A stretch of DNA of 64,000 bases from assembly GCA_000091205.1 (NCBI GenBank), contig AP006499.2; one strand, written 5' to 3'. The translations under genes and the position numbers were made by a program. The stretch's first letter is position 1. Each line of letters opens with the position of its first letter. Below the pieces are notes generated by a model that searched no databases, was not told the DNA's origin, and worked only from the letters and a program-made list of their open reading frames with translations. Source of the stretch: Cyanidioschyzon merolae. Taxonomy: Eukaryota. Shown piece after piece: positions 1 to 61,103 of this stretch.

Positions 1-2279
1 CTCGGATCAGAGAATATGATACATACGCTACTCTGAATCCCTCGGCACGACGCCGTACCACGTCGCTAATCAAAGCATGTACTTCGCTGGTGCGAACAGT
101 ATCAGACCGACCTAAAACAGCAATATTGCGTGCTCGTCAACGCCGAGCGTTACTTCAACCGCACCTTTTGGGTGCTGTAGCCCTACTTTACTGGCTCGGA
201 AAATTGGAGACTGATGAAACGGAATCTTGGGATGGCGATGGAAGCAACTGACTAGCTCGTGGTGGAAGACATCGAAGTAGCAGAGAGTTCGGAACAGATG
301 TCGCAACGATACTTAGCGTCCCGTCAAATCGTCGATGTTTGTCGTGATGATCTCGGCCACGGAACGACGAACCTCTTACTCAAAGGATGGTGAAAAGGTG
401 ATGCACCCTTCATTGCATCTTGCGCTGCCATTCGTTCACGAATGGAGTTATCCAGAGCCAAGCTTACCCTCCCTTCGAATCAGAGCACACCAGCCGCAAC
501 ACGCGTCTCTTTGGTGTGGTTCTCGTACGGTACATCAAGACCCAGAAAATAACTCAAGATATTTGCATAGTGTACTGAATAGCCTCCTTCGCGAGCTATA
601 GCTCGAATTTGCGAGCAAGTATCAAGCATTCGAAAAAGTTCGCCAAGGCTATTGGGAAAGCTTGTCCAAGCATTCTGTTTCACAGAAAGGAATTAGATAG
701 AGGATGAACGGGTGATGGAGACCAACGGAATACACATCTGAAAGAACCATGTGAAACTTTAGCCTAACTCGATCGCGGAGACTCATTTCCGACCGTAAAA
801 GGTAGATGAAGCGCAAGAATTCGCGGTAAGTGGGAAACCCTGCTTACATTAAAAACGTGGTAGTCTCCATATCTCTCAATCGCCGGGAACGGAGCCAAAG
901 ACCTGAACGGAAATCGGATGAAGCTGCTCATGTCTTGTAGGGCTCGGTATTATCGGGAGCCGGGCGTGATGTCCAACAGATGGCGTTCGAACAAATGGAG
1001 CACCAGCATAGTCGGAACCCGTCACGACGCTGCAAGCATCATATCAAGCTGAGTTGGATACATTTTGAGCCTCGCTCAGAGGGCATTTTAGCTCCCAGAT
1101 AGCTTATGAGCGGAATTTTTGGCGGGCATACATGAAAACGTGCTGGGGCCGCCAACAGATTCGGTTGTTCACAGGCCATAGGCTTGCATGAGCCAAAATT
1201 TTCAATCACTTTCAAAATGAAATGAGCGACAAATCGGGACGTTTGGTTGAAGCCTACGGCGCTGGACGTGATGAGGCGCACATGCGCTGCGCTTGTACTC
1301 CTTCGGCGAGAGCATGTAAAAATTGTGGGAATTTGATTCTGCATCGGTCCAATTGCCGTATTCAGGACGTCATACTCGAATCACGAGCACAGGTGTACGG
1401 TTGAACTGGAACAGAGGGAGAGAGTGAAGCAAAGCCGGATGCATGAGATGGTGTCCAATAAACTGACCCAAGCTCAAGTGGCGAGGCATTTGACGGTGAG
1501 ACGCTTGTGTCTTGTGATTCCACCAGCAGCAAATGCGCAAAATAAGTTGCTGCTCTGAGCCTTCAGCGTCTTGATCAACTTCCGCATTTGTCTCGTGCTT
1601 CTGAAGCGTCCAGTGGCTTTCTGTCGAGTAAACTTTTAGGGGAATGGAATAGAACTCAGCGTTGACATTCTGCAGAAATGCTGTAGGCTTCCAACGAAAA
1701 AATAGGTAACCAGAAGAGTGGAGACAGGATTATTGGGACGTGCATGGCGCTGTTGTGCTAGGGTCAGCAATTAGGAGAGGTGGGTGCTCCTTCTAGATGC
1801 ACTGGGACGGCTTTCCTCGGTAACTGGTGAACGATTATCATTTTACATGGCATTCATTACTGAGTATACTCAGTGTTGAAAATGAACCGGATTTCTACGT
1901 CCTCAGTTCAGAGAGTGAATCCAAAATCAGCCTTGCTCCCTAAGTGTTGTTATTCTTCAACGTCTTGATGCCGCCCCCGTAGCCACATACGACGTGCAGG
2001 ACAATCCCATCGAGTACTGGAAGCTGGCACCGGATCGCAGCAGCGCACGAAGCGATACACCAAGCAAGGAGACCTGCACCAGTAAATGCGGCTGGCGAGG
2101 TAATCAGGACAAGCTCGCCATAATGTGTATGAATGTCTTTCACAAAAGATACCTGCATAGGTGCCGAGCAAGGAAGCTGCCAACGCTTCTACTCTGTCGC
2201 TGCCTTCACGCTGTACATATAGAAGTCAATCGCCGGCATCCAGCGGCTTTCACGAGTAGAGCCCTGTCACGGATTCAGC

Positions 2280-3389
2280 TCATAAACGCGAAATATTGCT
2301 ATCGATGCTTGATATTCTCTTATTTGCCTTACGGTATCGGGCAAGCGCAAAGTGCGCATCCAGGTAAACATCCGCGTGTGCGTCAACGGACTTGGTAATC
2401 GGGTCTGCGTAGCCACCACCCATACAAATGACGATTCCTGCCTCAGATTCCTGAAGAATATAGTCGAGCACGATTTGATTTCGAAGTCGCAACCCGGCCC
2501 TCGTGAGCGCAAGGCGACCGAGCTTATCTTCAGCGAGTGCGTCGACACCTGCCTGGTAAAAGACGAGATCTGGATCATGCTTCGCCATGATACGTGGCAA
2601 CCAGACTTCTAGGATCTGTAGATAATCGGTATCATCGGTATTGTCCTCAAACTCAATATCCAAGTCGCTCTTTTGCTTTCTGAAAGGATAGTTGCCGTGC
2701 CCGTGAAATGAACAGGTAAACACGCGACTATCTCCTTGGAATATCGCAGCCACACCGTTCCCCTGGTGCACATCGAGATCGAGAACGAGTATTCTTCTAA
2801 CCTGTGCATAATCGCGGAGCGCTACTCGAGCTGCAATTGCGATGTCATTGAAGACGCAAAAGCCCTCTCCATGGTCCGGAAACGCGTGATGCGTTCCGCC
2901 AGCAATCTGAGCTGCACACCTGCTGCGACCCTCGACAACATCACGCATGCAGGCTACGGTGCCACCGACGGATGCCAGGGTCCTTTGCACAAGGGCTGTG
3001 CTCCACGGGAATCCGATACGTCGAACCTCTATATCGGAGAGTTTGCCCTTAATAAACCGGTCAACATAGTCCTTAGAGTGAACGAGCAGAATATCGTCTA
3101 ACTCGGCGAGTGGAGATACCAGAAAAGGTACTCCTTTGAAAGAGCTGTCCGCTTCGAGCTTCCTCCTGACTAATTCATACTTTGCCATAGGGAAGCGATG
3201 CCCGGCCGGCAGCTCTACCGCATATACGTCCGCAAAGTATACTCGCAGCGCTCCGGCGCTCCCTATCTCTGCCGCGTGAGCGCAGCGCGAGCTTCGGTGT
3301 CTGGGCCAGGTGGTGATTTTTGGGCGGAATGCGAGTTTTCTGTAGAAAGGATTAATCCAGCTACTTAACCGCGAAGCCTGCAAATACAT
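2280..3389 (-). CDS. Histone deacetylase superfamily protein (class II / HDA14-like or AcuC-like). The track ORF runs 2280..3497 from a TTG; the first in-frame ATG is at 3389.
   Basis: HDAC motifs are present in the translation: RVYFADVY...AGHRFPM, GGTHHAFPDHGEGFCVFNDIAIAA, GGGYADP. The 405-aa ORF has no interruptions. Confidence 0.82.
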   Translation of the reverse strand: MYLQASRLSSWINPFYRKLAFRPKITTWPRHRSSRCAHAAEIGSAGALRVYFADVYAVELPAGHRFPMAKYELVRRKLEADSSFKGVPFLVSPLAELDDILLVHSKDYVDRFIKGKLSDIEVRRIGFPWSTALVQRTLASVGGTVACMRDVVEGRSRCAAQIAGGTHHAFPDHGEGFCVFNDIAIAARVALRDYAQVRRILVLDLDVHQGNGVAAIFQGDSRVFTCSFHGHGNYPFRKQKSDLDIEFEDNTDDTDYLQILEVWLPRIMAKHDPDLVFYQAGVDALAEDKLGRLALTRAGLRLRNQIVLDYILQESEAGIVICMGGGYADPITKSVDAHADVYLDAHFALARYRKANKRISSIDSNISRL

Positions 3390-3516
3390 AGCGTTCTGTG
3401 AAACTGGACAAGAAGACAGCGTGCAGGACGAGAGCTGTGTTCGCAGCACTGGAACGCAGCGGCACACCACGCACCGGGTGCAGGCGTGCCTCGGCAATAG
3501 AGGACTTTTCAGGTCT
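3390..3516. promoter_or_regulatory. Short (about 127 bp) divergent intergenic region between the HDAC (-) and VPS36 (+) genes; a putative bidirectional promoter.
   Basis: Head-to-head arrangement of two confidently called genes. No motif evidence. Confidence 0.35.
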
Positions 3517-4974
3517 ATGGCGGTTCCCGCCAGTTCTGAGGCCTTGCAGTGCTTTGACTTGACAACTTCCGGTTTGCCAGTGTTGTGGGGTTCAGAGAAA
3601 CTTCAGGTCGTTGCGGAGAGAGTAACCGTCGACCTGAGTTCGACTGCAAGTGCGAGCGACTCTCGTCTAGAGGGCACCACCGTGTACGTCACTTCGCAGC
3701 GACTGCTCTTGAAACCGCAGCATCAACAGCAGCTATTTGGTACGGATCTCTCAGATGTAACCTTCATAAAAGCAAGCAAGTCGGGTAGTTTTCTGCTCTG
3801 TGGAGCCTGTGGGAGAACGAGTTCCGCGCTTGTTCGGGTTGGAAAGGGAACACTGCTACGCTTTCACTGGGCAGCAGACCCCAGCAGCGTGGCGAGCTTT
3901 CTCAACAACCTGCGTAGCGCTGTCGAGCTGCATAAGAACGCGAAACTTAGACAACAAGGCACTTTGCGTTGCAAAGATATTGCTGGAAATGACTTCGAAG
4001 CTCGCCCTGCAGGTGTAGCCGGCGTTCGGGCAGCGGAACAGCGCCTAAGAGACGAGCGTAAGCAGCTTCTCAACAGGGCGTTTACCGATATGAACCACCT
4101 TAGTGTCGATGCCGAGAACTTGCGCGCGATGAGTGAGGCGCTGGTTCGCGAAAGCCAGAGAATGAGACACGAAGCATTGAGTCAGGACCCGGAAGCGCTG
4201 CTCTCCGTGATGCTCCGTGACATGATGCGTTTCGCCGAGGATCGTGTTCGTATTGCTGCTGAACCGTCGGAACGCTCGAAGAGTTCAGAGTATTGTTCAC
4301 ACCTGGCGAGGGATCTTTACGATTTTTTGGAGCCGATTGTTGCGAAGAACGGTGGGCTTCTGCATATTTTCGACGCATATGTTCTTTACAACAGCACCCG
4401 ACCAGTCACAGATATTGTTCCAGCGGATGATCTATGCGATGCCTGTGCACAGTGGCCCATTCTTGGTCTCCGCCTTCGACTTGAAATGATGGAATCTCAG
4501 CTCGTCATCCGTACGACAGAAACGGTACCTGTTTCACAAAGATTACTCGAACGAATCAAGGAAGTTGGGTTTATGACCTCACTGCAGGTTGCAGATCAGT
4601 TCCATATACCTGTGCAAGTGGCAGCGTGGCAATTAGAGTCCGCAGAACGCGAAGGTTTTCTCTGTCGTGATGAAGAGGAAACCGGCTGCGTGCGGTATTT
4701 CCTGAATGAATTCGATGCAATCTATGCCGCGGAAATTGGTCGCGAGACGCCAGCAACCGGTACGGCTGGTAACGAATTGTTGCCTACGCCTCAGACAAGC
4801 GCAAATGAGCACATTCTAGAAACCGCTCGTGCTTTTACGCCACCTATTTTTCCAAATACAGCAAACATCAAATCAGATGCCATGAGTGTTGAGACGCTTC
4901 GTCGGAGACGAAGCGCTCAACCGGACCAAGACACCCCAAAGAGTCTTTCTGAGTGGGACGCGACTCCCCAATAG
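3517..4974 (+). CDS. VPS36: ESCRT-II subunit Vps36 (EAP45). It has an N-terminal GLUE domain and a C-terminal winged-helix region.
   Basis: N-terminus reads SGLPVLWGSEKLQ...TTVYVTSQRLLL (GLUE). The C-terminal region MTSLQVADQFHIPVQVAAWQLESAEREGFLCRDEEETGCVRYFLNEF is characteristic of Vps36. ATG at 3517; the track starts at GTG 3421. Confidence 0.75.
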   Translation: MAVPASSEALQCFDLTTSGLPVLWGSEKLQVVAERVTVDLSSTASASDSRLEGTTVYVTSQRLLLKPQHQQQLFGTDLSDVTFIKASKSGSFLLCGACGRTSSALVRVGKGTLLRFHWAADPSSVASFLNNLRSAVELHKNAKLRQQGTLRCKDIAGNDFEARPAGVAGVRAAEQRLRDERKQLLNRAFTDMNHLSVDAENLRAMSEALVRESQRMRHEALSQDPEALLSVMLRDMMRFAEDRVRIAAEPSERSKSSEYCSHLARDLYDFLEPIVAKNGGLLHIFDAYVLYNSTRPVTDIVPADDLCDACAQWPILGLRLRLEMMESQLVIRTTETVPVSQRLLERIKEVGFMTSLQVADQFHIPVQVAAWQLESAEREGFLCRDEEETGCVRYFLNEFDAIYAAEIGRETPATGTAGNELLPTPQTSANEHILETARAFTPPIFPNTANIKSDAMSVETLRRRRSAQPDQDTPKSLSEWDATPQ

Positions 4975-5419: not shown

Positions 5420-6060
5420 GGATGCGCGATGTGCCCTGGCGGCCGCACGCGCTGCGCATTGTCCGTTTCTTTCTCGATGATAAAATTCGGTTGACCATGG
5501 ATCCCAGATTGCGGGACATATAATGATGATTGAAAACGCGTCCATCTTGATGCATCTTTCTTCGAGTTCCATTGCTTTCACTTTCTTTCGAATATACTGG
5601 TCGTTTTTTACTTTCTATCATGTACCGAGTGCCTGACTGCGCCCACAGTAGCGCTTATACCGGTGGAGCTGATGCAGCACGGATACAGAACAGCTGTGTC
5701 GTACCACTGAGGGTTTCGGATCGAGGAACGATTCACCTGATACGGAATCAGTGCGGACAATCATTCTGGGAGCCTGAAAAGTGGGCAGAGAAACCTGGTG
5801 CCTGCAGCAGCGCGGACCGATATGCTAGGAGATAATTGCAATATTGGCGACGCCCAGACGCAGTATCCTAGTACTTGTCTAAGAATAAAGAGTGTTGCCG
5901 ACAAGCTGTGCAGGTCTCGCCACAGCACCTGCCACTCGAGGGAGTATGAAGCACTAGCCCGGCAGACCCGTCCGGTTCGCGGGACCTTCCACACAGAAGG
6001 TAAAGTTTCGAAGATACGGAAACCTTTCCCCCTTCAACGCTTTCCATGAAGGTCGAAAGA
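5420..6060 (+). repeat. Dispersed repeat family A, copy a (at least 640 bp). It is homologous to 19290..19935 (approximate bounds).
   Basis: Similarity to the 19.3-19.9 kb copy is visible by eye over the whole length. For example, gtaccgagtgcctg...ccactgagggtttcggatcgaggaacg...cattctgggagcctg...caggtctcgccacagc... appears in both. Confidence 0.7.
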
Positions 6061-6099
6061 ACCTGTTATTGAGTTGCTATTTAGTGGTTAGTTTCTGTT

Positions 6100-6290
6100 C
6101 TTTCGACAGTGGATCGGGATTCGCTTTCATTCTGGGAGCCTGCAGACTGCGCAGACAGACCTACTGCCTGCGACAGCACGGAGCGATACGCAAGGAATCC
6201 ACTGCGACCCAGACGACGCTTAGACGCAGCATATCAGCTCCTAGTCCCAGAATAAACTGCGTTCCAGACAAGCTGCTCAGGCCGCACTAA
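6100..6290 (+). repeat. Partial tandem re-duplication of an internal segment of repeat A. It corresponds to about 5755..5940 of copy a.
   Basis: cattctgggagcctgcagactg...tagtcccagaataaactgcgttccagacaagctgctcagg resembles copy a at 5755..5940 and copy c at 19645..19800. Confidence 0.6.
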
Positions 6291-14449: not shown

Positions 14450-14900
14450 ACAAAATATCAGTGAAATAGAAAATGTCCCGCGACCATGCAGGATCAATGA
14501 GCACCCACGGATAGATGCCTCCCAGGCTTTTTTGACCCGCTGTCTGCTATCGGTTTCAGCTTCTCACTGTACGCTTCGAGCGTGAGGGGATGTCCAACAA
14601 AATTTGGACCCCCAGCTCCTCGGGTCCCGTCTCCAGCACCGCATATCGTCTGATACTGATGGCGGCGTTGAAGTCTCGGTTCATAAACTCCATACGTTTT
14701 GATGCCTCTAGTTGATCTTATCAATGTGCGTATTCCCCGAGCTCGCGCTTTCAGTACCATTTGCTGCTCTGCCAACTCTCCGTGCGTGTCCAATGCCGAA
14801 GCGCTCCGTTGGCTTCTCTCCGTTACGGCCTTCTGAAGCGTACATTCCTGCTCTTTCCATAAGTTTGAACATGAACGCACTTCCTGACGCCTTTAGATGA
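14450..14900 (-). pseudogene. Degraded 3' fragment of the TnpB/Fanzor-like element (copy 4). It retains the RuvC-III motif, is frameshifted, and carries the conserved 3' tail.
   Basis: The minus-strand translation contains RMEFMNRDFNAAISIRRYAVLE. The upstream KARARGIRTLIRSTRGIKTYG aligns to ERRAKVRGLLALVSTTSDGKKRMEF in copy 1. The conserved tail ggaggcatctatccgtgggtgc lies at about 14501..14522 (reverse complement). Confidence 0.6.
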
Positions 14901-15177
14901 TTACTTCCCCGGAGAGAGACGGACTTGCTGAGGGACTATGACATGTATTCCCCGTGTGTCACCGTGTGCTGAACGCATTAGCGATTCGCCCAATGGAGCG
15001 ATCACTGCGTACCAAGATAGAAAATACTCATAGGATGGGGTTGAACCACGGAGCTAACGGAGCAATGGAAAGCAACTGTATCCCTATAGAATTCGCAAAA
15101 GCTCGGGCGCAAGGGGAACGATGAAATGCAACGTTGTCCGATAGAATAGCGTCTCCAGACCTGCAGAGCAAAAGTCT

Positions 15178-15448
15178 TCAATTATTCCACAATGTGGAAT
15201 GGTGTTTTCTGAGCCTTCTATTCGAGTTCGATCGTACATTTAACAGGTTAACTGCTCTGCAAATACCCGGATAAGTTGTGACGGTTTCGTCCGAAGGACG
15301 TCTCATCGACCGAAAACATAAATGGACGTCCCTGTGTTTCATACCGATCGTAATGTTCCAGGAACGCTGTCGTTGCGATTGGAAGGAAGATGCCATTGCT
15401 TGAACGATGACTCTTTTTGAGATTGTATCCCAGTGTTTTCAGGATCAT
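15178..15448 (-). pseudogene. Possible remnant of a DDE transposase (Tc1/IS630-like LKxLGYxxKK...FxDEtsF segment).
   Basis: ORF MILKTLGYNLKKSHRSS...RPFMFSVDETSFGRN resembles the region around the first catalytic D of DDE_3 transposases. It is short and interrupted. Confidence 0.25.
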
Positions 15449-16432
15449 AGGCGCGACTTGGTGAGAAACAGAGACGCCTGTGGCGGCTATTATCGTCGCT
15501 GTTGCTTTCCGAAAATGGTGATCAACGGATCGTTTTCTAAGATCGACTGCAAGCGACCTCTATGAATATCGATCTCTGGCACGGAGTGCATCTACATTTT
15601 TCTTATAGTTTTCGCCAACCATCTGAGTACGTCGGTATGACTGTCCTAAACGAGGAATGCAGTCCTCCTTGGACTGTTCAGAAATGAATGTAAATGCTAC
15701 ATGCAAATCATCTACGATCTACACTATGCATTGCATTGCGATTTCGATCTCCTAGACATCGCAGCGGAAGTGAAACAGAATTTAGTACAAAGACTACAAG
15801 AACGGAAACCTCGGGCCTCTTTGATGGTAGCGTTCACGCATCCGATAGATGCCAATATGACACATCTGGTGAAAAAGCAGCTAAACATTCGCGTCGATTC
15901 GTTTTCTGGGTCTGTTCAGGGCATGGTGCTGGCATGTGCGTGCTGGCACTCACCAGCACTCACTGAACGTTGCTTTGCAGTCGCGAAATGCGAAAGCATC
16001 CCGCTCCAACGCGAGTTCGCGGTGATGAACTTGTCTTCAGCATCGCTTCCAAAGTCCGAATGCGACCAGCAAATGCCTCTTCATGGGAAGCTTGCGGCAA
16101 ATACCATCTCAGTTTGACATGGATGAATTCGTGCTCGACATTTCACGAGTGCAGCGCAAGAGGTCAATTCACTGTCCGCTTACACCTGTGCATGCGACGG
16201 CAACATAGAAACCGGAAACGAGTATTCTGCATTCACAGGAAATACCCTGCAGCATAGGCATCTGGATCCCATCCAATCGTTCAGAGCGCTTTTCCGCACG
16301 GCGCTGCTGAGGGCGCACTGATCCGTAAAACGCTTGGGATGTTTCGGTAGACATCTCGCTGCCTTTCGAGTCGAGCTTGTTGCGAGAGGAAAACCCAGCA
16401 GCCGGGGGACGTTCACGAGTTGCGTTTTTGCC

Positions 16433-18398: not shown

Positions 18399-19289
18399 TA
18401 TCCAGCGTTATACACAACAATGAAACTGCGAGTTGCAATCAAGTAAGAACGCAAACGTTCATGCAACACGAACGGAAAAATCGTTTCGTGATCATCGACG
18501 ATGGGCGGCAGCGTGCTCGCGATGCAGGGCTTCGAAGGATCGCGGCGTTCGGTGCAGCGGAATCGGGATGCCAGAGACGCCAGCACACTTAACCTTTCTG
18601 TGCCTGTGCTGGAAAAAAAGAACGCAGCTATCTCTTTGAGAGACATCAACATCTGGGAATCACTGTGGTAAATGAAGGCCAGCCACTTACTTTGAGTGTA
18701 GTGCTAGCAACTGATGGTCCCGTAACTGAGCTCCAGCACTCACCAGTTGTCAGCGAACTCATACTCTACCCCCTAGGTGGAAGGTCCAGCGAACCAGATG
18801 CGCACACGGGACCAGTGTTACGCGTACCTAATCACTGGTGGGTGCCAAGCACAGACCCGAGTCGCCAACCGACGGCAACGCTTTCCATGTACGATCACGC
18901 AGGAGAGAGGCGGCTCCCAGGATTCATCGTAACAGCCAAGTTTCTCCAATGTGTTGTGAAGCGAAAGCAAGTTTTGCATCCGCAGGCTGTCCGAGCACAA
19001 ACTGACAACGAGACCCAGTTCTACGTCAGGTGAAGCATGCCTCGAGCAGACGCCGTCTGCGGTACGGCAACGCCGTTCTGTTTCTGTGCTACGACAGCAC
19101 CGGCGCTACAAGCGCTATTGAGGCGGATGTTCACGGGCAGGCACTCGGCGCCCGATAGCACGTCTGAAACACCATTACATCCGAGAAGAAGTATGGGTTA
19201 TGAAACTTGGACGTAAGGCGTGGAATGACGAAAGTTCCACCGCGCGCAGGCATCAAGCGCACAGAGTCGCGGCACGCTCGCCTGTGTGA

Positions 19290-19935
19290 GAAGTTTTCAC
19301 ATGGAACAAAATCCGCTGCATTTGCTGTTGCCGCTGATTTTTCTCCAATGACAAAACGTTTACATTGTACTTGGATTCCAGATAGCGAGATGGATGGGTA
19401 TAGCTGATCGAAAAAGTGTCCATCATGATGCACTCTACCTCCATGCTCCGTTCCTTATACTTCCTTTCGGATGTACAGATCGTTTTGTGCGTTCTGTAGT
19501 GCGACCGAGTGCCTGCTTTGGGCACCCGCCTTAGCGCCTATACCACTGGGACGGATGCATCATGGAGATAGAACAGCGTTGCCATACCACTGAGGGCGAC
19601 GGATCGAGGAACGCTTTACCTGATACAGCGTTGGAGTCCAGAATAATTCTGGGAGCCTGTAGGCTAAACAGACAGAACTTTTGGCTGCGAAAGCACGAAC
19701 CGATATACTAGGAGTCTACTGCGATCTGGGCGACGACCAAACACAGCATCCCGCATCTAGTCCCAGAATGAACCGCGTTGCGGACGAGCTGCTCAGGTCT
19801 CGCCACAGCGCCCGCTACTGGGGGGAGCACGAAGCACGAGTCCGGGAGACTCGTCCGGCTCGCGGGACTTTTCGCCTAGAGGGAGGATTCTTCAGAATAT
19901 GGAAACCTTTTCCGCCTTTTCAAAGTTTATCGTAG
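19290..19935 (+). repeat. Dispersed repeat family A, copy c. It lies about 400 bp upstream of the start of TnpB/Fanzor-like element copy 1.
   Basis: Homologous along its whole length to 5420..6060. Minus-strand small ORFs in both copies are also related (MEVECIMMDTFSI vs MELEERCIKMDAFSI). Confidence 0.7.
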
Positions 19936-20318
19936 AAGGGGAAAGAAATTGCCGTATCGTTGCTCGCTAGTCGTGAGTCTCTTTTCTTTGTTCAACATAG
20001 CGCAGTCGATTTGCGCACCAGGGAGATCTGTCAGTTTCGAGTCACGACGCGTATGCTGCCGTTGAAGGGAAACGCGATCCTGATCAATAGCGTGCTGCTC
20101 TAATGTGCAAGTTGTACTTGCGTTAAAGACGTGGCAAAGTACAGTTCTTCAGTTCATTTGTGTTTCAAACCTCAAACAAGTGTATTCAACTGTTTTTTCG
20201 CAGTATATAACTGAAGCGTTCAAAGTCCGTTACAAAAAATAAAGAAGGAAAGTCATGGAAAACCAAGTCGACGATCCTGGAGGCCCAGTGTGGCTGGCCG
20301 CCAGAAAAAAAACAAAAA

Positions 20319-21776
20319 AATAGTGCCGAGTCCAGAAGAAAGCGAAGTGAAAAAGAAGCATTAGGGGAGGCTCTACGTCGAAGGCAGCAAGAAAGACGTC
20401 TGTACAACGAGATGGCGGTGAAAGCCTGTCTTCGTAAACATACCAAGGATCCGTACAAGGAAAAGTTGCGAGGCGCTATCAGAAACCGTGTCGAGTTCTA
20501 ATCCATGAGTATTATAAAGGCGTCATCAGTACGAATGCATTTGGTGTCGGAGATGTACGGAGACGTGACGCACATGGAAACAGTCGAGGTTCCGGATGCG
20601 TTTTCCGACAAGACTTCTATTCGTCACCTGATGCTTGGTACAGGGGAATCGTCGACGAAAAAAGAGCTAGTCCATGCCTTCCACGAAAACTTTGCAGATT
20701 TCCGCTTCGAGGGTACTCGATACAAGGGTGACGGAAGTATTTACACATACGGGGCGATGAAGTACATCACGAACCTGAGGAACCATTTGACTATGAACCC
20801 GGAGCGTTTCATGATACGCACCGTCTTTGCGCTGTACCCGGGACTGTCTCGCAAAGGAGTATGGGCGATTATCAATGGGATCACGAACGATCGCAAGCAT
20901 GAAGATGACAAGGAGGCGGATCTCGCGACGAAGAAAGTGCAGGATAACGACTCTGTCGTTCACGCGGACCCTGGGAATACGAATATCATAACCATCGCAG
21001 CACCCAAGCGTGGGGAAGATGGTACTGACGGTACCTTGCGTCAGAAAGATATGTGTCTTTTGAGGTTCTCGAGAGCAAGATACTATCGAGAATCCGTTAT
21101 AATGAATGCGAGAAAGAAAATCGACACATGGAATGCAGGAATGAAGGATCACCTGGAAGCTTTGAGGGAGGTGACGAGCCACGGGGCGGACTTTACAGCT
21201 TCTCGGAAATTCATGGAAGTTCGTGTTGCTCATTGGGATGCGCTGTAGAAAGAATATACAAAGCCCCGGCGGGCTCGTTTGCGTATGAATTTGTATTGTG
21301 GGAGGCAGCGTGCATTCGCAATCTTTTTCAATGAGTTGCGTGCCCTGAAGGAGGACGAGCGTCAAAGTCTCGTAGTAGCATACGGAGCAGGGCGCTGGAA
21401 GACCCAAAAAGGATGTACACCAGCTCCAACGACAAGAACGTACAAGGAGTGCGCACGGCGTTTTGTTACGGTGCCTGGAGATGAGTTCCGAACATCGTAT
21501 GTGCATCATGAACTGTGATGTACGCTTCAGAGAGTGGAGATGGAAAAGTGCCAGAGGAGCCCTGAGGATATAAAAAAGTACGGAGCGCTGACAGATGAGC
21601 AAATGGAAAGGAGGGCGAAAGTTCGAGGATTGCTTGCATTAGTAAGTACAACCAGTGATGGCAAGAAACGTATGGAATTCGTGAATCGTGACTTTAATGC
21701 CGCCGTCAATATAAGGAGATATGCGGTGCTGGAGAATAGACCTCCAAAGAAGACACAACAGGACTTAATTGGATAA
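20319..21776 (+). pseudogene. TnpB/Fanzor-like RNA-guided-nuclease homolog ORF of copy 1, interrupted by three nonsense codons. Read-through or a recently inactivated gene are both possible.
   Basis: See the element entry. At the TGA position, copy 3 has GGG and copy 4 has GAA, so the ancestral codon was probably GGA (Gly). Confidence 0.6.
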
Positions 21777-21905
21777 TCACTCAAGGTGGAATTATATGAG
21801 ACAATATTGGAAGCGGTAGTAGGTGGCCGGTCCAAAAAACTAAGAGGCGTCTGCACGTCAGCTGAAGATGTCTAGTCTAGGGCGGGTCACTCGCCGCTAT
21901 TGTAC
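20319..21905 (+). mobile_element. Near-full-length TnpB/Fanzor-like element (copy 1). A single reading frame of about 485 codons carries RuvC-I-like and RuvC-III motifs and is broken only by three in-frame stops. It is followed by a conserved non-coding 3' tail of about 130 bp.
   Basis: RuvC-I-like motif SVVHADPGNTNIITIAAPKRGEDGT (Asp codon at 20967..20969). RuvC-III motif KKRMEFVNRDFNAAVNIRRYAVL (Asp at 21690..21692). All segments 20319..20498, 20502..21245, 21249..21515 and 21519..21776 are in frame 0. In-frame stops: TAA 20499, TAG 21246, TGA 21516. Confidence 0.65.
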
Positions 21906-22389
21906 ACGGCCGCTGGTGGCAACGTTTTTCGTTTGAAAGGCGTTTGCTGTCTGTCGATCGAAGCCACCATAGGCTCACACCTAACTAGAAGCCCCGGTTT
22001 GAAACTGCATAGGCAGCGTATAGAGATCCAAATCGTCGACAAGCCACTTCTTCTCAATGCTCGCGAGCGAGCAGTTGCAAGTATTTGGAGGACACACTCG
22101 CTCGAACTAACGCACCTGTCACTGCGAGCGGTTCCACATCATGGTTGTTGTAGCGCACTTACTCTACGTGACGGTTTCCGTGCACGCAACTTTAGACGAG
22201 ATTCTTAGCGGTTGGGGTCGGAACTTAAAATGCGTCCTAGATCGGAGGCGCCCTGGCCTCGCAGGGCCTAGAGACACCCGGCCTCGACCAAGGTCAGGCG
22301 GGCACGTTCTTGACGCATTATTCGCACGCAAGCTTCCTTTTCCACCCAAGGACTCGTTTGATGGGTGGTGCACGGCGCCACTTCAGACG

Positions 22390-34084: not shown

Positions 34085-35269
34085 GTTTGGAGTACGAACC
34101 CGTCGTTGCTGGCCACTGATGCAGCCGATGAGCGCAAGTCGCCGAGACTATCCACGGTGTCCAGTAATGTGCGTGTTTATACATTTTTTTCTTGATCGCC
34201 TTTCGAGGCAGCGCATACGACGCGCTCGCCCCGTTCATGCCAGCGGTGACGCACGCTACGCTGGAAGCGATCGCTGCGATGACTACATTCCAAGTCCGAG
34301 ACCCTTTTCCACGCATACCGAAGAGACAGTAAACTTTAGCAGCGTATTGTGTGAGATGTGTCATGCAGCTGCCGAATGCCATTCCGTGAATGGCCTCAAA
34401 TGGCGGAGGATTTGTTATTCGAACGGAATCGATTGTTTCACGCGAGATGTTCGGTGAGCTTTCAGCACGGTTTTTGTGGATCGAGTTGCGAACGGCCGTT
34501 GCCAAGTATTATCGTCCGTGAATCCAGCGCAATGAATCGCTTCGTCAAAGCGTTGATTGAACCTGAAAGACCGAAACCCTGCAAGAATACCGTGTACGCA
34601 TATACTATAAATAGCGATAGAGGAAGAACGGAGGCTCGTACGTATGCATCAGATAAAGGTATCCGTTAGTTTACAAAAACCTATTTGATTGCGCCGCAGA
34701 TCTGCTTTACTCCGGTGATGGCACGAGTGCCAGCGGCGAACTGGTCAAAGCAGTTGCCCCGAACAGGCGGCCGAGAACTCTCCAACTGCGTATGAATCGA
34801 CAAGTCCCTAATGCTCCATTTCAGAACCTCGAGGCTGTATGCCTGGGAAACCTTCGAAAGAATCTCAGAGCTGGAACAGATGGCAACGTTTCTTGTTTAA
34901 TTGTTATCGGACACGACAAAGGCGGTCACCAGAAGCGTACAACTCGGAGTTGGTTCATCCCCGGTGCAGTGTATAGCAGGAGATCGACATCACGATGCAA
35001 CGCTTTGTATAGATCGTGGATGAATTACGTGCTGGACATTAATTCCTTACTGAACATTGTAAGAGAGACCGCATTCCTCCCTCAGGTCAGTCATACAACA
35101 GTGCTCAGATGGTTGCGGAATAACGGAATAAACATGTATGTGCAGTCCACGCAAAGAACTGATGTTCCTTAAGTGTGCTTGCAGTCAATGGTAGAAAACG
35201 ACCAATAGATCACGCTCTAAAAAGCAAAAGTGACGCTGATAGCCGCCGCGGGCGTCTCTGCTTCTCAAT

Positions 35270-36400
35270 AGCTTGAGCGTGTTGACCAAAAAACATGGGG
35301 ATGCAGTCGCCAAGGAGAGTGCTAGTTCATGCACTGCCGTCTTGTACCGAAATAGCAACGACAGAGTTCCTAGAACGTCGGGATCCGTACGAAGCACTGG
35401 AACCTCGAGTTGCTTTTTTAAGGTGATAAGACTTCCTCTTGACGAAACGGTCAGAGCGTGTACGGGTATTCGCGGAGCAGGGAGCACGATGTATGCACTA
35501 CCGAACTTTAAGAGAACGAGGACACTATCTGTTCTAGCTGGAGTGGATTCTTTTCGCGGCCTCAGTTCCGCTAGTAGACAAGGTTCATACAATAGCTCCA
35601 AACACTGTATCGAATCATTGAAGACTTTACCCTGACGTCTGGCGACGTCCGCCCATTGGACAAAGTGGCATTTTCCAATTTCCCTAGCGGTCGGGCTTTC
35701 GCCGATTTTATCGGGGCAGAGCTGATTTTCATTCCTACGTGCATTCCGTGGTTCAGCCACATCGAAGGAGTGTTTTTACCCTGAAACGTCATGATAGTTT
35801 CAAGTGCGAATCCCTGAAGCGTTCAGCACATGGTGACACACCGGGTACATTTTATCTGTCTTGCGCAAATCCTTCTCCCTCTGAGAAAGTCCTCACCAAG
35901 GGGCATCAAGAATTGCGTTCATCTAAAGAAATAAACCATCCAACGGATGAGCTGAAGTGTGCACTTCAGAAGGTCGAGATGCAACGAAGGCAGCGGAGCG
36001 CTCCGGCGATCGAAAAGCACAGAGCGCCGCTAGAGCGCTAAATGCCACAGAGGGCGCGATTTCAAGGACTTCTGCTACTGATGCGTTCCATCGTCGTCAA
36101 TAAACGCGTGGAGTTCGTGAACCGAGACTCCAACGCTGCCATCCATATCAGAAGATATGCAGTGCTGAGGACGAGACCCAAGGAACTGACGAGAGCCAAC
36201 TTTATGGGGCAACCTCTCAGTGTCAAAGTGTACAAGGGCAAGCTGAACCCCCACAGCAGGGGGCCGGTCAAAAACGCCTGGGAAGCGTCTGCACGTGGGT
36301 ATTCATTTACTCTGTATGGCCGCGAAACGTTTCCGCTTCCTTGACTGTGGAAGCGAAATCCGTGGTGACTTTCACAGCATTTTGGCGCGCTTTCGAGCAG
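35270..36400 (+). pseudogene. Diverged, truncated copy (copy 2) of the TnpB/Fanzor-like element. It has the RuvC-III motif and the conserved tail fragment, and ends about 130 bp upstream of the TLK gene.
   Basis: KRVEFVNRDSNAAIHIRRYAVLRTRPKELTRANFMGQPL (36042..36344) resembles the C-termini of copies 1 and 3. The upstream ...FFKVIRLPLDETVRACTGIRGAGST resembles ...FFNELRALKEDERQSLVVAYGAGRW of copy 1. The tail ggaagcgtctgcacgtggg resembles ggaggcgtctgcacgtcag. Confidence 0.55.
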
Positions 36401-41189: not shown

Positions 41190-41888
41190 ATGCTCCGCCC
41201 GCACATCATAAGGTATCTGTGCTGTGGAGCCGCCAGCACCCCGATGCTGGGGCAGCAGCGCGAACTCGCGGCTTTTGTGGAGTCCGCGCACCCCGAAACA
41301 CGCCTGCAGGGCCATGGGCACGGCAAAAGCAGCCACCGTGTCTGGCAGAAAGCCACAGCACCACTTTCATGGCTTGTCGTGGAGAATTTCGTTTCCGGTT
41401 TACAGCAACTCGGAATGAGCGTACAAGGCGTGTGCACCTCGTTTCGCTACGATACTTATAGATGAGTTCCGAACATCGTATACACACCACGAACTGGGGT
41501 GTACACTTCAGAAGGTCGAGCTAGGAAAGTGCCAGCGGAGCCCTGAGGATATAAAAAGCACGGACCGCTGACAGAAGCGCAACTGGAAAGGAGAGCGAAA
41601 GTTCGTGGACTACTTGCATTAGTGAGTACAACCAGTGACGGCAAGAAACGTATGGAGTTTGTGAATCGTGACTTTAACGCCGCTATCAATATCAGGAGGT
41701 GTGCGGTGCTGGAGACGAGACCTCCAGAGTTGACACGAGAGAACTTTATTGGACAACCTCTCAAGTCGAATTATATGAGACAAGATTGGAAGAAGTAGTA
41801 GGTGGCCAGTCGAGAAAAACTGGGAGGCGTCTGCACGTCAGTGGGAGACGTTTCGTATAGGGCGCTGGTCGCCACTACTGCACACGCC
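41190..41888 (+). pseudogene. 3'-truncated, frameshifted copy (copy 3) of the TnpB/Fanzor-like element. It retains the RuvC-III region and the full conserved 3' tail, and ends about 17 bp before the uS9 start codon.
   Basis: Nucleotide identity to copy 1 is visible from about 41400 to about 41888 (DEFRTSYTHHELGCTLQKVE...KKRMEFVNRDFNAAINIRRCAVLETRPPELTRENFIGQPL). There is a frameshift near 41465. The tail runs ...ggaggcgtctgcacgtcag...ctactgcacacgcccg. Confidence 0.65.
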
Positions 41889-59879: not shown

Positions 59880-61103
59880 TCGACTGTCCCAGCGCGGGAT
59901 TGGTAGTATAGCCAAGTCGCGTACCGGCTCCAGCGCGGGAGCATCCTTTGCAGGCTGTAAAGGCTGCCGGACAGCTTTATAAAGTTGGACAGCGAATACT
60001 TCAACCGCGCTGCTTAAAACCGGCAAGTTCCTGTGGTATCCCCAGTTGAGCCGGCGCTCAAACATAACGGCTACAACAGCCGCTATCCCGGTTCGAATCA
60101 GAACGCACCTAGTGAACGTCAAGCTCACATAGGCACTTGCGTTTCCGGGTCAAAGTTGAGTTTAGAGTCGAGCGCTCCGTAAGACGACGGCTTTTCGTCG
60201 CCGTGTGCGTGGCGACTCGGCGTAACGATGTCGTGCGCTGTACGAAAAGCACGAGCAGCAGCAGCAGCGCTCACGCCCGACACTCTCAGCGGTGGTAAGG
60301 CGAAGCGGTTCTGTTTATGCGTTGCTTCCGCACCGGCGTTGCAGATGACGTTGCGTACGCTCACTGCAGGCACTCGGCACACGATAGACAGTACGACTTG
60401 AACAGTATCTCCCATACGGAGCACTTGTGGTACCGGGTGGAGCTTGAAAGTAGAGTGGAAAATGATAGACGTTCTCCAATATGCCGGTTTCCTATCCTGC
60501 ACAACCGGAGATCTCTGGTCAGCGTAAACCCACTGTCGATCGAAGTACTCCATTCGAGGGCCGCATCTTGGCGGATGGACGCACCAGATGTTTTGGCATC
60601 CGCCAGATACACCACTGCAGCAAACGAACAGCGTGTAGGGACATGACTGCATCGGCAAGCGCTTTCATGTTCCATGGAATTCAGTCCAGAGATCCTCTAC
60701 GCACCAACATCCTTACCAGTCCAACGAGCTTTGCAGCGCAGAGCATACCGCAGGTGCGTGATCGGCAGTCGTTTGCGCCCCAGCAAATATCCAACGGCAG
60801 CTGGACGGCTCGACGGTGCCTCTGGCGGTCGCAAATCGACGCCTGGGCAAAGCGACACAAACCCCATCACACAACCGTATAGGGCGTCAAAAAGCTACAC
60901 AAAAAATGCATCTGCGAGCAGGTCCAGCAGCGCAACGTCACCGCGGATGGCAAGCGGCGATCAGCGCATGAGGCAGGCGCGCTACGCACACCCACTGTCG
61001 CGTGACCTGCTCGAGAAGCGCAACGCAGTGGAGACGCTGCACGCGGAGCACGGACCCGTCGATCCCTCAGATCCGTGGAACGCTGCGCCTAGGGAGCTTC
61101 ACG

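Follow-up and report, generated by a model that had tools for sequence, protein, structure and literature searches.

The window, i.e., the whole stretch of 64,000 nucleotides analyzed here, carries on its plus strand a decayed mobile element with the following features.

19346-21942, plus strand: complete element, a decayed CMe-1A copy with an internal deletion (blastn against the published 3,169-bp consensus)
19346-19995, plus strand: non-coding 5′ module, TE-N2_CMe (CMe-1A 1-~636; published equivalence and copy comparison)
19996-20254, plus strand: conserved 5′ leader before the Fanzor start codon (four-copy alignment)
20255-20257, plus strand: ancestral Fanzor1 ATG, shared by every aligned copy but here no longer in frame with the body
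20300-20370, plus strand: two frameshifting indels, +2 nt at ~20312 and -1 nt at ~20364 (pairwise alignment to a 29-copy consensus)
20499-20501, plus strand: premature stop 1, TAA; Ser-Tyr in relatives (RVESYSMS in CMe-1)
20895-20908, plus strand: internal deletion junction with 14 nt of microhomology (overlapping blast segments, pairwise and protein alignments)
20967-20969, plus strand: RuvC-I catalytic Asp codon in motif VVHADPGNTNIITIA (ADPGNT); invariant in 42/42 relatives
21246-21248, plus strand: premature stop 2, TAG; Trp in relatives (DALWEEY)
21369-21398, plus strand: LVVAYGAGRW in the window translation
21372-21395, plus strand: canonical RuvC-II strand VVAYGAGR, with Gly (42/42) in place of the TnpB catalytic Glu
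21483-21485, plus strand: relocated catalytic Glu codon in motif GDEFRTSYVHHEL (GDEFRTS); invariant in 42/42 relatives
21516-21518, plus strand: premature stop 3, TGA; Gly in relatives (HHELGCTLQ)
21690-21692, plus strand: RuvC-III catalytic Asp codon in motif FVNRDFNAAVNI (NRDFNAA); invariant in 42/42 relatives
21774-21776, plus strand: premature stop 4, TAA; CAA (Gln) in relatives (GQPLKVELYE)
21777-21880, plus strand: once-coding C-terminal extension (consensus ORF and CMe-1 protein both end ...RRLHVSWRRFV-stop)
21923-21942, plus strand: 3′-terminal hairpin CGTTTTTC-GTTT-GAAAGGCG at the right end; the published consensus ends ...GAAAGGCG

The 5′ end of CMe-1A and TE-N2_CMe carries GACAAAACGTTT. 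By blastn, positions 3-1553 of the CMe-1A consensus correspond to window 19348-20903 (82.9% identity) and positions 2124-3169 to 20895-21942 (87.2% identity), and in a tblastn comparison with CMe-1, the Fanzor1 protein published for the family, the retained parts of the window translation show 64-83% identity. Judged from these alignments, 19346-21942 is very probably one old, dead copy of CMe-1A, the Fanzor1-carrying DNA transposon that forms a multi-copy family in Cyanidioschyzon merolae or a close relative. The initial annotation had placed the element at 20319-21905, which is too short at both ends, and had implied novelty; the family was already published as CMe-1A/CMe-1 in 2013. That description counts ~150 copies ~80% identical to the consensus, equates the 5′ 635 bp with TE-N2_CMe, and, being the paper that defines Fanzor1, lists CMe-1 as a member (Bao and Jurka, 2013; Mob DNA 4:12, PMC3627910). 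An independent reconstruction agrees with it: ~3 kb in length, ~80% identity of copies to the consensus, TE-N2_CMe at the 5′ end, and neither terminal inverted repeats (TIRs) nor target site duplications (TSDs). More than 20 independent loci have the TE-N2_CMe module immediately 5′ of the Fanzor leader; the module is also found alone, and the leader has matches at about 40 loci. A right end at 21912, where blast similarity falls sharply, was considered and rejected, as both the published consensus and a 39-copy alignment extend to 21942.

The initial annotation had also noted family members elsewhere in the window, and these are real. They lie, together with solo pieces of the 5′ module and a host gene, at the following positions.

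14513-14853, minus strand: family member (window search)
35947-36296, plus strand: family member (window search)
41417-41885, plus strand: 5′-truncated 3′-end CMe-1A fragment (consensus 2665-3137, 89% identical)
~900-1678, plus strand: more distant relic (window search)
5475-6281, plus strand: solo TE-N2_CMe-like copy (CMe-1A 1-636, 77% identical), with a partial duplicate at 6114-6281
19025-19215, minus strand: solo 5′-module piece (comparison with CMe-1A)
60277-60529, minus strand: solo 5′-module piece (comparison with CMe-1A)
3421-4974: Vps36/EAP30 gene

The eukaryotic nuclear context that had been proposed is upheld as far as Vps36/EAP30 is concerned, and is extended by genes for histone deacetylase, Alg9 mannosyltransferase, TTI1 and a plastid-type PetC Rieske protein. 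Since host genes across the window consist of long ORFs without interruption, the genome appears to be intron-poor, and this compact algal gene content, together with the match to the repeat consensus, is the reason why C. merolae or a close relative is taken as the host.

The coding part of this copy is heavily damaged. In the 29-copy consensus, the ATG at 20255-20257 opens an ORF of 770 codons; in the window copy, the frameshifts at ~20312 and ~20364 uncouple it from the body. A poly-A run was considered as the frameshift site and rejected, because alignment to the consensus places the indels at those two positions. [quoted passage not shown] Three stops had been counted; the number of premature stops is four, as the closing TAA at 21774 is itself premature, and three frameshifting indels come on top. 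The ancestral stop, a TAG, lies at about 21878-21880, beyond a 1-nt deletion at ~21839, so that the supposed conserved non-coding tail is mostly former coding sequence. Furthermore, the copy is not near-full-length, as had been stated: it lacks 229 of the 770 consensus codons. The internal deletion amounts to 687 bp against the 29-copy consensus and to 570 bp against CMe-1A, of which positions 1554-2123 are absent, and the module measures 1,916 bp vs 2,430-2,860 bp in other copies. The deletion takes out consensus codons 218-446, upstream of RuvC-I. Within the lost segment lie LILRYFVFL, FNVVPMCNIKSHFVTID and FTGLIETDGVALCVHY, whose aligned counterparts in solved Fanzor1 proteins precede RuvC-I; by this alignment the lost segment is the WED/REC part.

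These lesions bear on whether the locus could be a live Fanzor gene whose stops are intronic or read through, so that a functional or recently functional RNA-guided nuclease is made. The copy retains all three catalytic codons (D, E, D), and some CMe-1A copies are said to still encode intact proteins (Bao and Jurka, 2013; PMC3627910), but the copy is colinear with the consensus, without intron-like insertions at the stop sites, and the stops stand where relatives have sense codons, in a window whose host genes are uninterrupted. The ATG is out of frame, and the deleted 229 codons are present in every intact relative. A live gene is thus highly improbable. The description as active or recently active likewise fails, as the copy has diverged by ~14% from the consensus, and a full-length ORF is missing from all of the ~50 close copies retrieved. 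With 229 codons lost, the start out of frame, four stops and ~14% divergence, the window copy is incapable of RNA-guided cutting.

The relic may instead have been co-opted, either as a truncated protein from a 247-aa ORF (20505-21248) or through a 3′ tail serving as a structured host or regulatory RNA. Gene calling picks up this ORF, and two metagenome contigs carry it with 99% conservation; however, the flanks in both contigs are equally conserved (97-99.6% over the whole locus), so that the conservation reflects strain relatedness, not selection. Moreover, the ORF crosses the junction made by the deletion and closes at a premature stop. As for the tail, the terminal hairpin is kept, but the window tail does not fold more stably than its shuffles (z = -1.28), and a search of Rfam matches no family. 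The consensus tail is more stable than its shuffles (z = -3.04), which is weak evidence for an omega-RNA, and the RNAalifold covariation term across 39 decayed copies is -0.37, i.e., there is almost no covariation. Co-option in either form is very unlikely, and the most fitting view of the window copy is that of neutral debris left by a transposon among host genes.

The derivation of the element from a Fanzor1 gene, i.e., a eukaryotic TnpB-like gene with a RuvC domain, is supported at two levels, profile and fold, and the Fanzor call of the initial annotation is right for the family. Single-sequence searches with the read-through translation return nothing relevant in Pfam, NCBIfam or PDB sequences, and a 9-sequence profile has no match in the PDB; homology is therefore visible only with a broader profile or through the fold. 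Indeed, a 42-sequence profile of intact relatives matches only Fanzor1 chains in the PDB (PpFz1 9cf0, E-value 6.4e-22; SpuFz1 8gkh, 3.1e-16; GtFz1 9cer, 6.2e-9). An AF2 model from the 9-sequence input is not usable (pLDDT 43), and that of an intact relative, P0082, reaches a pLDDT of 86.3. A Foldseek search of the PDB with the latter returns Fanzor1 as the top seven matches (E ~1e-17, TM up to 0.73), followed by Cas12f, Cas12o, Cas12h and C2c1, and the model has the bilobed WED/REC plus RuvC/TNB fold, so that the relative is predicted to fold as a Fanzor1/Cas12-like protein. The window copy could not form it, because the 229 codons upstream of RuvC-I are gone. For the family, both outcomes that the initial annotation had named as refuting its reading, no significant profile match and a fold without the RuvC core, failed to occur.

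A bacterial TnpB (IS200/IS605 or IS607 OrfB), brought in by contamination or recent horizontal transfer, would share the D...TS...RD pattern, and relatives of the element do give a weak PF07282 match. Yet the matches to PDB sequences are to eukaryotic Fanzor1 only, no prokaryotic model in NCBIfam matches, the canonical RuvC-II Glu is missing, and the Lys/Arg-rich N-terminal extension is like that of other Fanzors. The element also lies between eukaryotic genes on one contig and matches a red-algal repeat family. A bacterial origin of this kind is extremely improbable.

Catalytic residues are another point on which the Fanzor1 assignment clarifies the earlier reading. The initial annotation found no RuvC-II glutamate and suggested that the protein may be catalytically divergent. 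In Fanzors, Gly or Pro replaces Glu at the canonical RuvC-II site, and the Glu is relocated downstream (PMC10530073). The “missing” Glu, as judged from the aligned sequences, is this known rearrangement: the canonical site holds Gly, the invariant Glu sits in DEFRT, and this layout is the normal one for Fanzors. In the numbering of P0082, D421, G559, E592 and D659 are invariant in 42/42, and the corresponding codons are all found in the window copy. The RuvC-I Asp aligns with DPGR of PpFz1 and DPNK of SpuFz1, the relocated Glu with IDEFRTSS of PpFz1 and LDEYKTSS of SpuFz1, and the RuvC-III Asp with NRD of SpuFz1 (D606 in the literature) and NRN of GtFz1 (N658).

The C4 zinc finger, which is part of the Fanzor/TnpB motif of 2013 (Bao and Jurka, 2013; PMC3627910), is a different matter. 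Between [TS][TS] and RD, a CxxC pair is missing from 40/42 clade members, and neither CMe-1 nor the window copy has one; by this comparison the zinc finger appears to have been lost in the Fanzor1 clade of CMe-1, a clade of at least 2,800 clusters at 50% identity. The TNB domain is still detected in 20/42 members (PF07282, Cas12f1-like TNB). Membership in Fanzor1 is kept despite the absent zinc finger because of homology and fold, and zinc ligands are taken as typical, not obligatory, since the Fanzor1-defining paper itself counts CMe-1 as a member.

The ancestral element was about 3.2 kb long. A non-coding 5′ module of ~640 bp and a leader of ~260 bp were followed by a single ORF without introns, 734-770 codons in length, which reached nearly to the right end. 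The ORF encoded a Fanzor1 protein whose D-E-D RuvC triad was intact and had the rearranged layout typical of Fanzors. By homology to SpuFz1, GtFz1 and PpFz1, the active CMe-1 protein would have bound an omega-RNA transcribed from the 3′ end of the element, with the DNA flanking its right end as the guide, and would cut matching double-stranded DNA beside a short TAM; such RNA-guided cutting may help the element to persist or spread. The window locus itself, debris of a family catalogued in 2013, is of very little importance. The CMe-1 consensus is of more interest: a complete Fanzor1 from a thermoacidophilic red alga, with all catalytic residues and no zinc finger, whose reconstructed sequence makes it a candidate zinc-independent and possibly heat-tolerant RNA-guided nuclease.

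How CMe-1A moves is a question to which its termini are relevant, and they could settle which transposition machinery is responsible; the class of CMe-1A and TE-N2_CMe was left “unknown” by Bao and Jurka (2013; PMC3627910). The longest string common to both flanks measures 5.9 nt within a copy vs 5.7 nt in mismatched controls, giving no sign of a TSD, and the search for TIRs running end to end yielded nothing but an inverted match that is asymmetric and subterminal. This match (13/15) pairs positions 5-19 with a site 62-76 nt from the 3′ end and is equalled by 1/500 shuffles. The left flank at -10..-1 is 64% T, vs 18% at -40..-21, and a stable terminal hairpin occurs in 21/39 copies, in two sequence versions. 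The T-rich 5′ target, the lack of TSDs, the two-version 3′ hairpins, the asymmetric subterminal inverted repeat and the 5′-truncated copies suggest, tentatively and with the balance tilting against it, that CMe-1A and TE-N2_CMe are Helitron2-like rolling-circle elements. No RepHel (HUH plus helicase) gene was seen in the window or the fetched loci.

Intact distant relatives of the CMe-1A Fanzor1 adjoin Tc1/mariner DDE_3 transposases. If the doubtful Helitron2-like reading holds, one Fanzor1 lineage would accordingly have changed its transposon vehicle. There is no trace of a DDE_3 transposase in the CMe-1A consensus. Relics in the window that bear DDE_3 were considered as a mobilizing partner and rejected: they have only the Fanzor C-terminal coding region in common with the element and diverge before the terminus.

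Comparison with known systems places the element at several levels. The closest is CMe-1A itself, with 83-87% nucleotide identity over consensus 3-3169 and with the TE-N2_CMe 5′ module, the ORF and the right end (...GAAAGGCG) in common; unlike the consensus, the window copy lacks the internal segment and carries frameshifts and four stops. The 29-copy metagenome consensus differs from CMe-1 in extra 75-bp (25-aa) tandem repeats just before RuvC-I, giving 770 vs 734 aa. [quoted passage not shown] In CMe-1A, however, the repeat has its 3′ arm 62-76 nt away from the end, whereas the Helitron2 definition gives 20-30 nt, and the likeness makes the Helitron2 class a hypothesis, not an established assignment.

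Among nucleases, SpuFz1 (8GKH), PpFz1 (9CF0) and GtFz1 (9CER) share their overall fold with the P0082 model over ~685 columns (TM up to 0.73), and their RuvC-I Asp, the relocated Glu in (D/N)E(F/Y)xTS and the RuvC-III NRD align with those of the CMe-1 clade, although sequence identity is only 11-16%. SpuFz1 shares a CCCC zinc finger with TnpB, unlike the CMe-1 clade. Bacterial TnpB (IS200/IS605, e.g., ISDra2) has the RuvC core and TNB-domain homology in common with CMe-1A, whose coding region reaches the right end, where TnpB systems encode the omega-RNA. In contrast to TnpB, CMe-1A has no TnpA partner and no zinc ligands, its RuvC-II Glu is relocated, its host is a eukaryotic nucleus, and its protein carries about 300 extra N-terminal residues, which start with a basic, NLS-like sequence.

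The reading frame that begins at 20319(+) had been regarded in the initial annotation as a TnpB/Fanzor-like gene, and its translation agrees exactly, with all of the motifs in place (VVHADPGNTNIITIA, LVVAYGAGRW, GDEFRTSYVHHEL, and FVNRDFNAAVNI). Stops lie in this frame at 20499 (TAA), 21246 (TAG), and 21516 (TGA), and the frame ends at TAA 21774. The read-through translation alone finds no match in Pfam, NCBIfam, or PDB sequences; in a large protein database it has 202 close homologues. An exhaustive profile search extends these to 2,868 representative clusters (E ≤ 1e-3), mostly of 600–700 aa, and many of the relatives carry the PF26935 (DUF8286) tag. A narrow profile of nine sequences has no match in PDB, while a profile made from 42 diverse full-length relatives (alignment A3) has exactly three matches there, all of them Fanzor1:

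Parasitella PpFz1, E 6.4e-22
Spizellomyces SpuFz1, E 3.1e-16
Guillardia GtFz1, E 6.2e-9

In these profile alignments, DPG, DEFRT, and NRDxNAA fall on the corresponding motifs of the three proteins, and 20 of the 42 members match Pfam PF07282 (Cas12f1-like TNB domain). The fold gives the same answer. An AlphaFold2 model of P0082, an intact relative, built on A3 is confident (pLDDT 86.3, pTM 0.82), and the top seven hits of this model in a Foldseek search of PDB are Fanzor1 structures (E ~1e-17, TM up to 0.73, ~685 columns), followed by Cas12f, Cas12o, Cas12h, and C2c1. The family had thus been rightly recognized from the raw sequence, on both profile and fold matches; neither of the outcomes named beforehand as refuting it, a lack of significant profile hits or a fold without a RuvC core, was obtained.

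The active site is that of an ordinary Fanzor. Asp of ADPG, Glu of DEFRT, and Asp of NRD are invariant in all 42 members, as is Gly of VAYG at the canonical RuvC-II position, 33 residues before the DEFRT Glu. In Fanzors, the canonical RuvC-II Glu is replaced by Gly or Pro and a conserved Glu further downstream is used (Jiang et al., 2023, PMC10530073). The absence of Glu at RuvC-II, which had been taken as a possible sign of catalytic divergence, is therefore explained by the usual Fanzor rearrangement and gives no evidence of divergence. The RuvC-III Asp aligns with NRD of SpuFz1 and NRN of GtFz1, that is, D606 and N658 (Xu et al., 2024). A C4 zinc finger is part of the Fanzor/TnpB motif of 2013, and SpuFz1 has one. 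Searched for as CxxC...CxxC between DEFRT and NRD, it was not found in 40 of the 42 members, in CMe-1 (the Fanzor1 protein of the published C. merolae transposon CMe-1A), or in the window copy (interval 21483–21692); CxxC remnants are seen only in P0254 and P0258. Judged from the alignment, the truly unusual feature of this clade is the apparent loss of the C4 zinc finger, with D, E, and D remaining invariant.

The element belongs to a family described in 2013 and is already known. CMe-1A was reported from Cyanidioschyzon merolae as ~150 copies, each with ~80% identity to its 3,169-bp consensus, encoding the 734-aa CMe-1; no TIRs were found, TSDs were undetermined and the class was unknown, and a separate repeat, TE-N2_CMe, equals its 5′ 635 bp (Bao and Jurka, 2013, PMC3627910). 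Compared with the published consensus, window 19348–20903 corresponds to CMe-1A positions 3–1553 (82.9% identity) and 20895–21942 to positions 2124–3169 (87.2%). The same architecture was rebuilt independently from ~50 metagenomic copies, in which the leader and ATG are conserved and, at more than 20 loci, a ~650-bp 5′ unit lies immediately ahead of the leader. At one locus (L004 814–2710, − strand), other DNA beside RVT_1 (reverse-transcriptase) ORFs replaces the TE-N2_CMe module upstream of the leader, probably because a retroelement inserted, or the DNA was rearranged, at the junction of the module. The majority consensus built from 29 copies contains a single uninterrupted 770-codon ORF, with 91–95% DNA identity and 86.5% protein identity to CMe-1A; most of this divergence comes from additional copies of a 25-aa tandem repeat that directly precedes RuvC-I. 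This 75-bp repeat, KHEEKKEADPATQEVQDNDFVVDAA-like, lies immediately N-terminal to the RuvC-I strand and varies from one to at least four copies across the family:

L003 6465–6693, tandem repeat
L004 4875–5024, tandem repeat
window 20895–20966, tandem repeat

The window copy itself is an internally deleted pseudogene. Scored against the 29-copy consensus, with which it shares 86.4% of 1,946 aligned nt, it has gained 2 nt at ~20312 and lost 1 nt at ~20364 and at ~21839; owing to the first two indels, the body is no longer in the reading frame of the conserved ATG at 20255. A deletion of 687 bp (229 codons) at 20908, with a 14-nt junction microhomology (20895–20908), ends at that microhomology inside the 75-bp tandem repeat. 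The lost block contains LILRYFVFL, FNVVPMCNIKSHFVTID, and FTGLIETDGVALCVHY, which all intact relatives keep and which align to solved Fanzor1 upstream of RuvC-I. There are four premature stops, including TAA 21774, which stands for CAA. The ancestral ORF ran on to a TAG at ~21878–21880, so that most of the tail previously described as conserved and non-coding was once coding. The module of this copy is 1,916 bp long, compared with 2,430–2,860 bp in other copies. Neither a near-full-length element nor an active or recently active system, as first proposed, is supported at this locus. No full-length ORF was found among the ~50 close copies retrieved (longest, 557–599 aa); some genomic CMe-1A copies are intact (Bao and Jurka, 2013, PMC3627910). 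A metagenome contig, L001, represents the same locus with 97% identity including the flanks, and because the flanks are equally matched, conservation of a 247-aa ORF in it reflects strain relatedness and not selection.

Family members had been noted elsewhere in the window, and tblastn/blastn of the region against it gave four more pieces:

~900–1678, + strand, related piece
14513–14853, − strand, related piece
35947–36296, + strand, related piece
41417–41885, + strand, related piece

The first is a second, far more divergent Fanzor1 relic (32–40% aa identity to CMe-1 residues 453–709), scattered across three frames with LVEAYGAGR in ORF 1222–1404; it may be an older or different Fanzor1 family of the same genome. 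TE-N2_CMe-like repeats are also found: near-complete at 5475–6103(+) with a partial duplicate at 6114–6281(+), partial and inverted at 19025–19215(−), shortly before the main element, and partial at 60277–60529(−). The setting is eukaryotic, as was noted at first: nearby long ORFs encode histone deacetylase, Vps36/EAP30, Alg9 mannosyltransferase, TTI1, GST, and an N-terminally extended, plastid-type Rieske protein (PetC). These host ORFs are uninterrupted, which fits a compact, intron-poor alga.

Established for the family are its homology and fold, the intact catalytic triad of the consensus, and the extension of the coding region into the right end. By analogy with SpuFz1, GtFz1, and PpFz1, the active ancestor would have cut dsDNA in a TAM-dependent manner under the guidance of an omega-RNA, presumably derived from the 3′ end of the element. 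The RNA tests are weak: the final 253 nt of the CMe-1A consensus form a more stable fold than shuffled sequence (z = −3.04; the window copy's own tail, −1.28), covariation across 39 decayed copies is nearly nil, and an Rfam search of the tail gave no matching family. Three insertions (L007, L008, and L009) encode identical intact 699-aa Fanzor1 proteins and share ~190 nt of non-coding sequence 3′ of the stop before diverging (e.g., L008 4311–4493). This stretch is a clean candidate for an omega-RNA or right-end region, and the lineage is possibly active. The same loci have 12–18-nt tandem repeats between the transposase and Fanzor genes.

Intact distant relatives of 586–702 aa have such a transposase gene, DDE_3/HTH_Tnp_Tc3 (Tc1/mariner-type, ~300 aa), directly upstream of Fanzor1 on the same strand at more than 25 loci (L007–L011, L020–L051, L060, L066, and L081), with Pfam E of 1e-26 to 1e-27 (e.g., L008 890–1807, L011 112–1017). 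Because of this adjacency, the clade is typically a two-gene Tc1/mariner-Fanzor element. No trace of a DDE_3 transposase is found in CMe-1A. A ~1.35-kb relic family is also represented twice in the window, by copies with ~69% identity to each other at 34978–36332(+) and 15753–14471(−), with decayed transposases:

35032–35775, + strand, decayed DDE_3 transposase
14968–15696, − strand, decayed DDE_3 transposase

In each, DDE_3 is followed within ~100–170 nt by only the last ~120 CMe-1-like Fanzor codons and part of the tail. The relics part ways with CMe-1A before the 3′ terminus, which rules them out as its mobilizing partner and makes them a sister lineage.

The ends of CMe-1A itself were examined in alignment A6 and in two intervals of the window:

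19330–19365, left terminus
21860–21960, right terminus

Neither TSDs at CMe-1A copies nor an end-to-end TIR was found when looked for. In the 10 nt immediately 5′ of the element, T makes up 64% and pyrimidines 86%, versus 18% and 48% further out (16 independent copies), and right-flank bases 1–4 are T in 20, T in 23, T in 16, and G in 18 of 26. A 3′-terminal hairpin exists in two sequence versions that pair in different registers, and its stability is significant in 21 of 39 copies; the 3′ end of TE-N2_CMe bears its own 9-bp stem. CMe-1A positions 5–19 match in inverted orientation, at 13 of 15 bases, a site 62–76 nt from the 3′ end, which was equalled by 1 of 500 shuffles. With their T-rich 5′ flank, TTTG right flank, lack of a TSD, 3′ hairpin, and asymmetric inverted match, these termini are like the Helitron2 traits of Chlamydomonas Fanzor1 elements (Bao and Jurka), and by its ends CMe-1A may be a Helitron2-like element.
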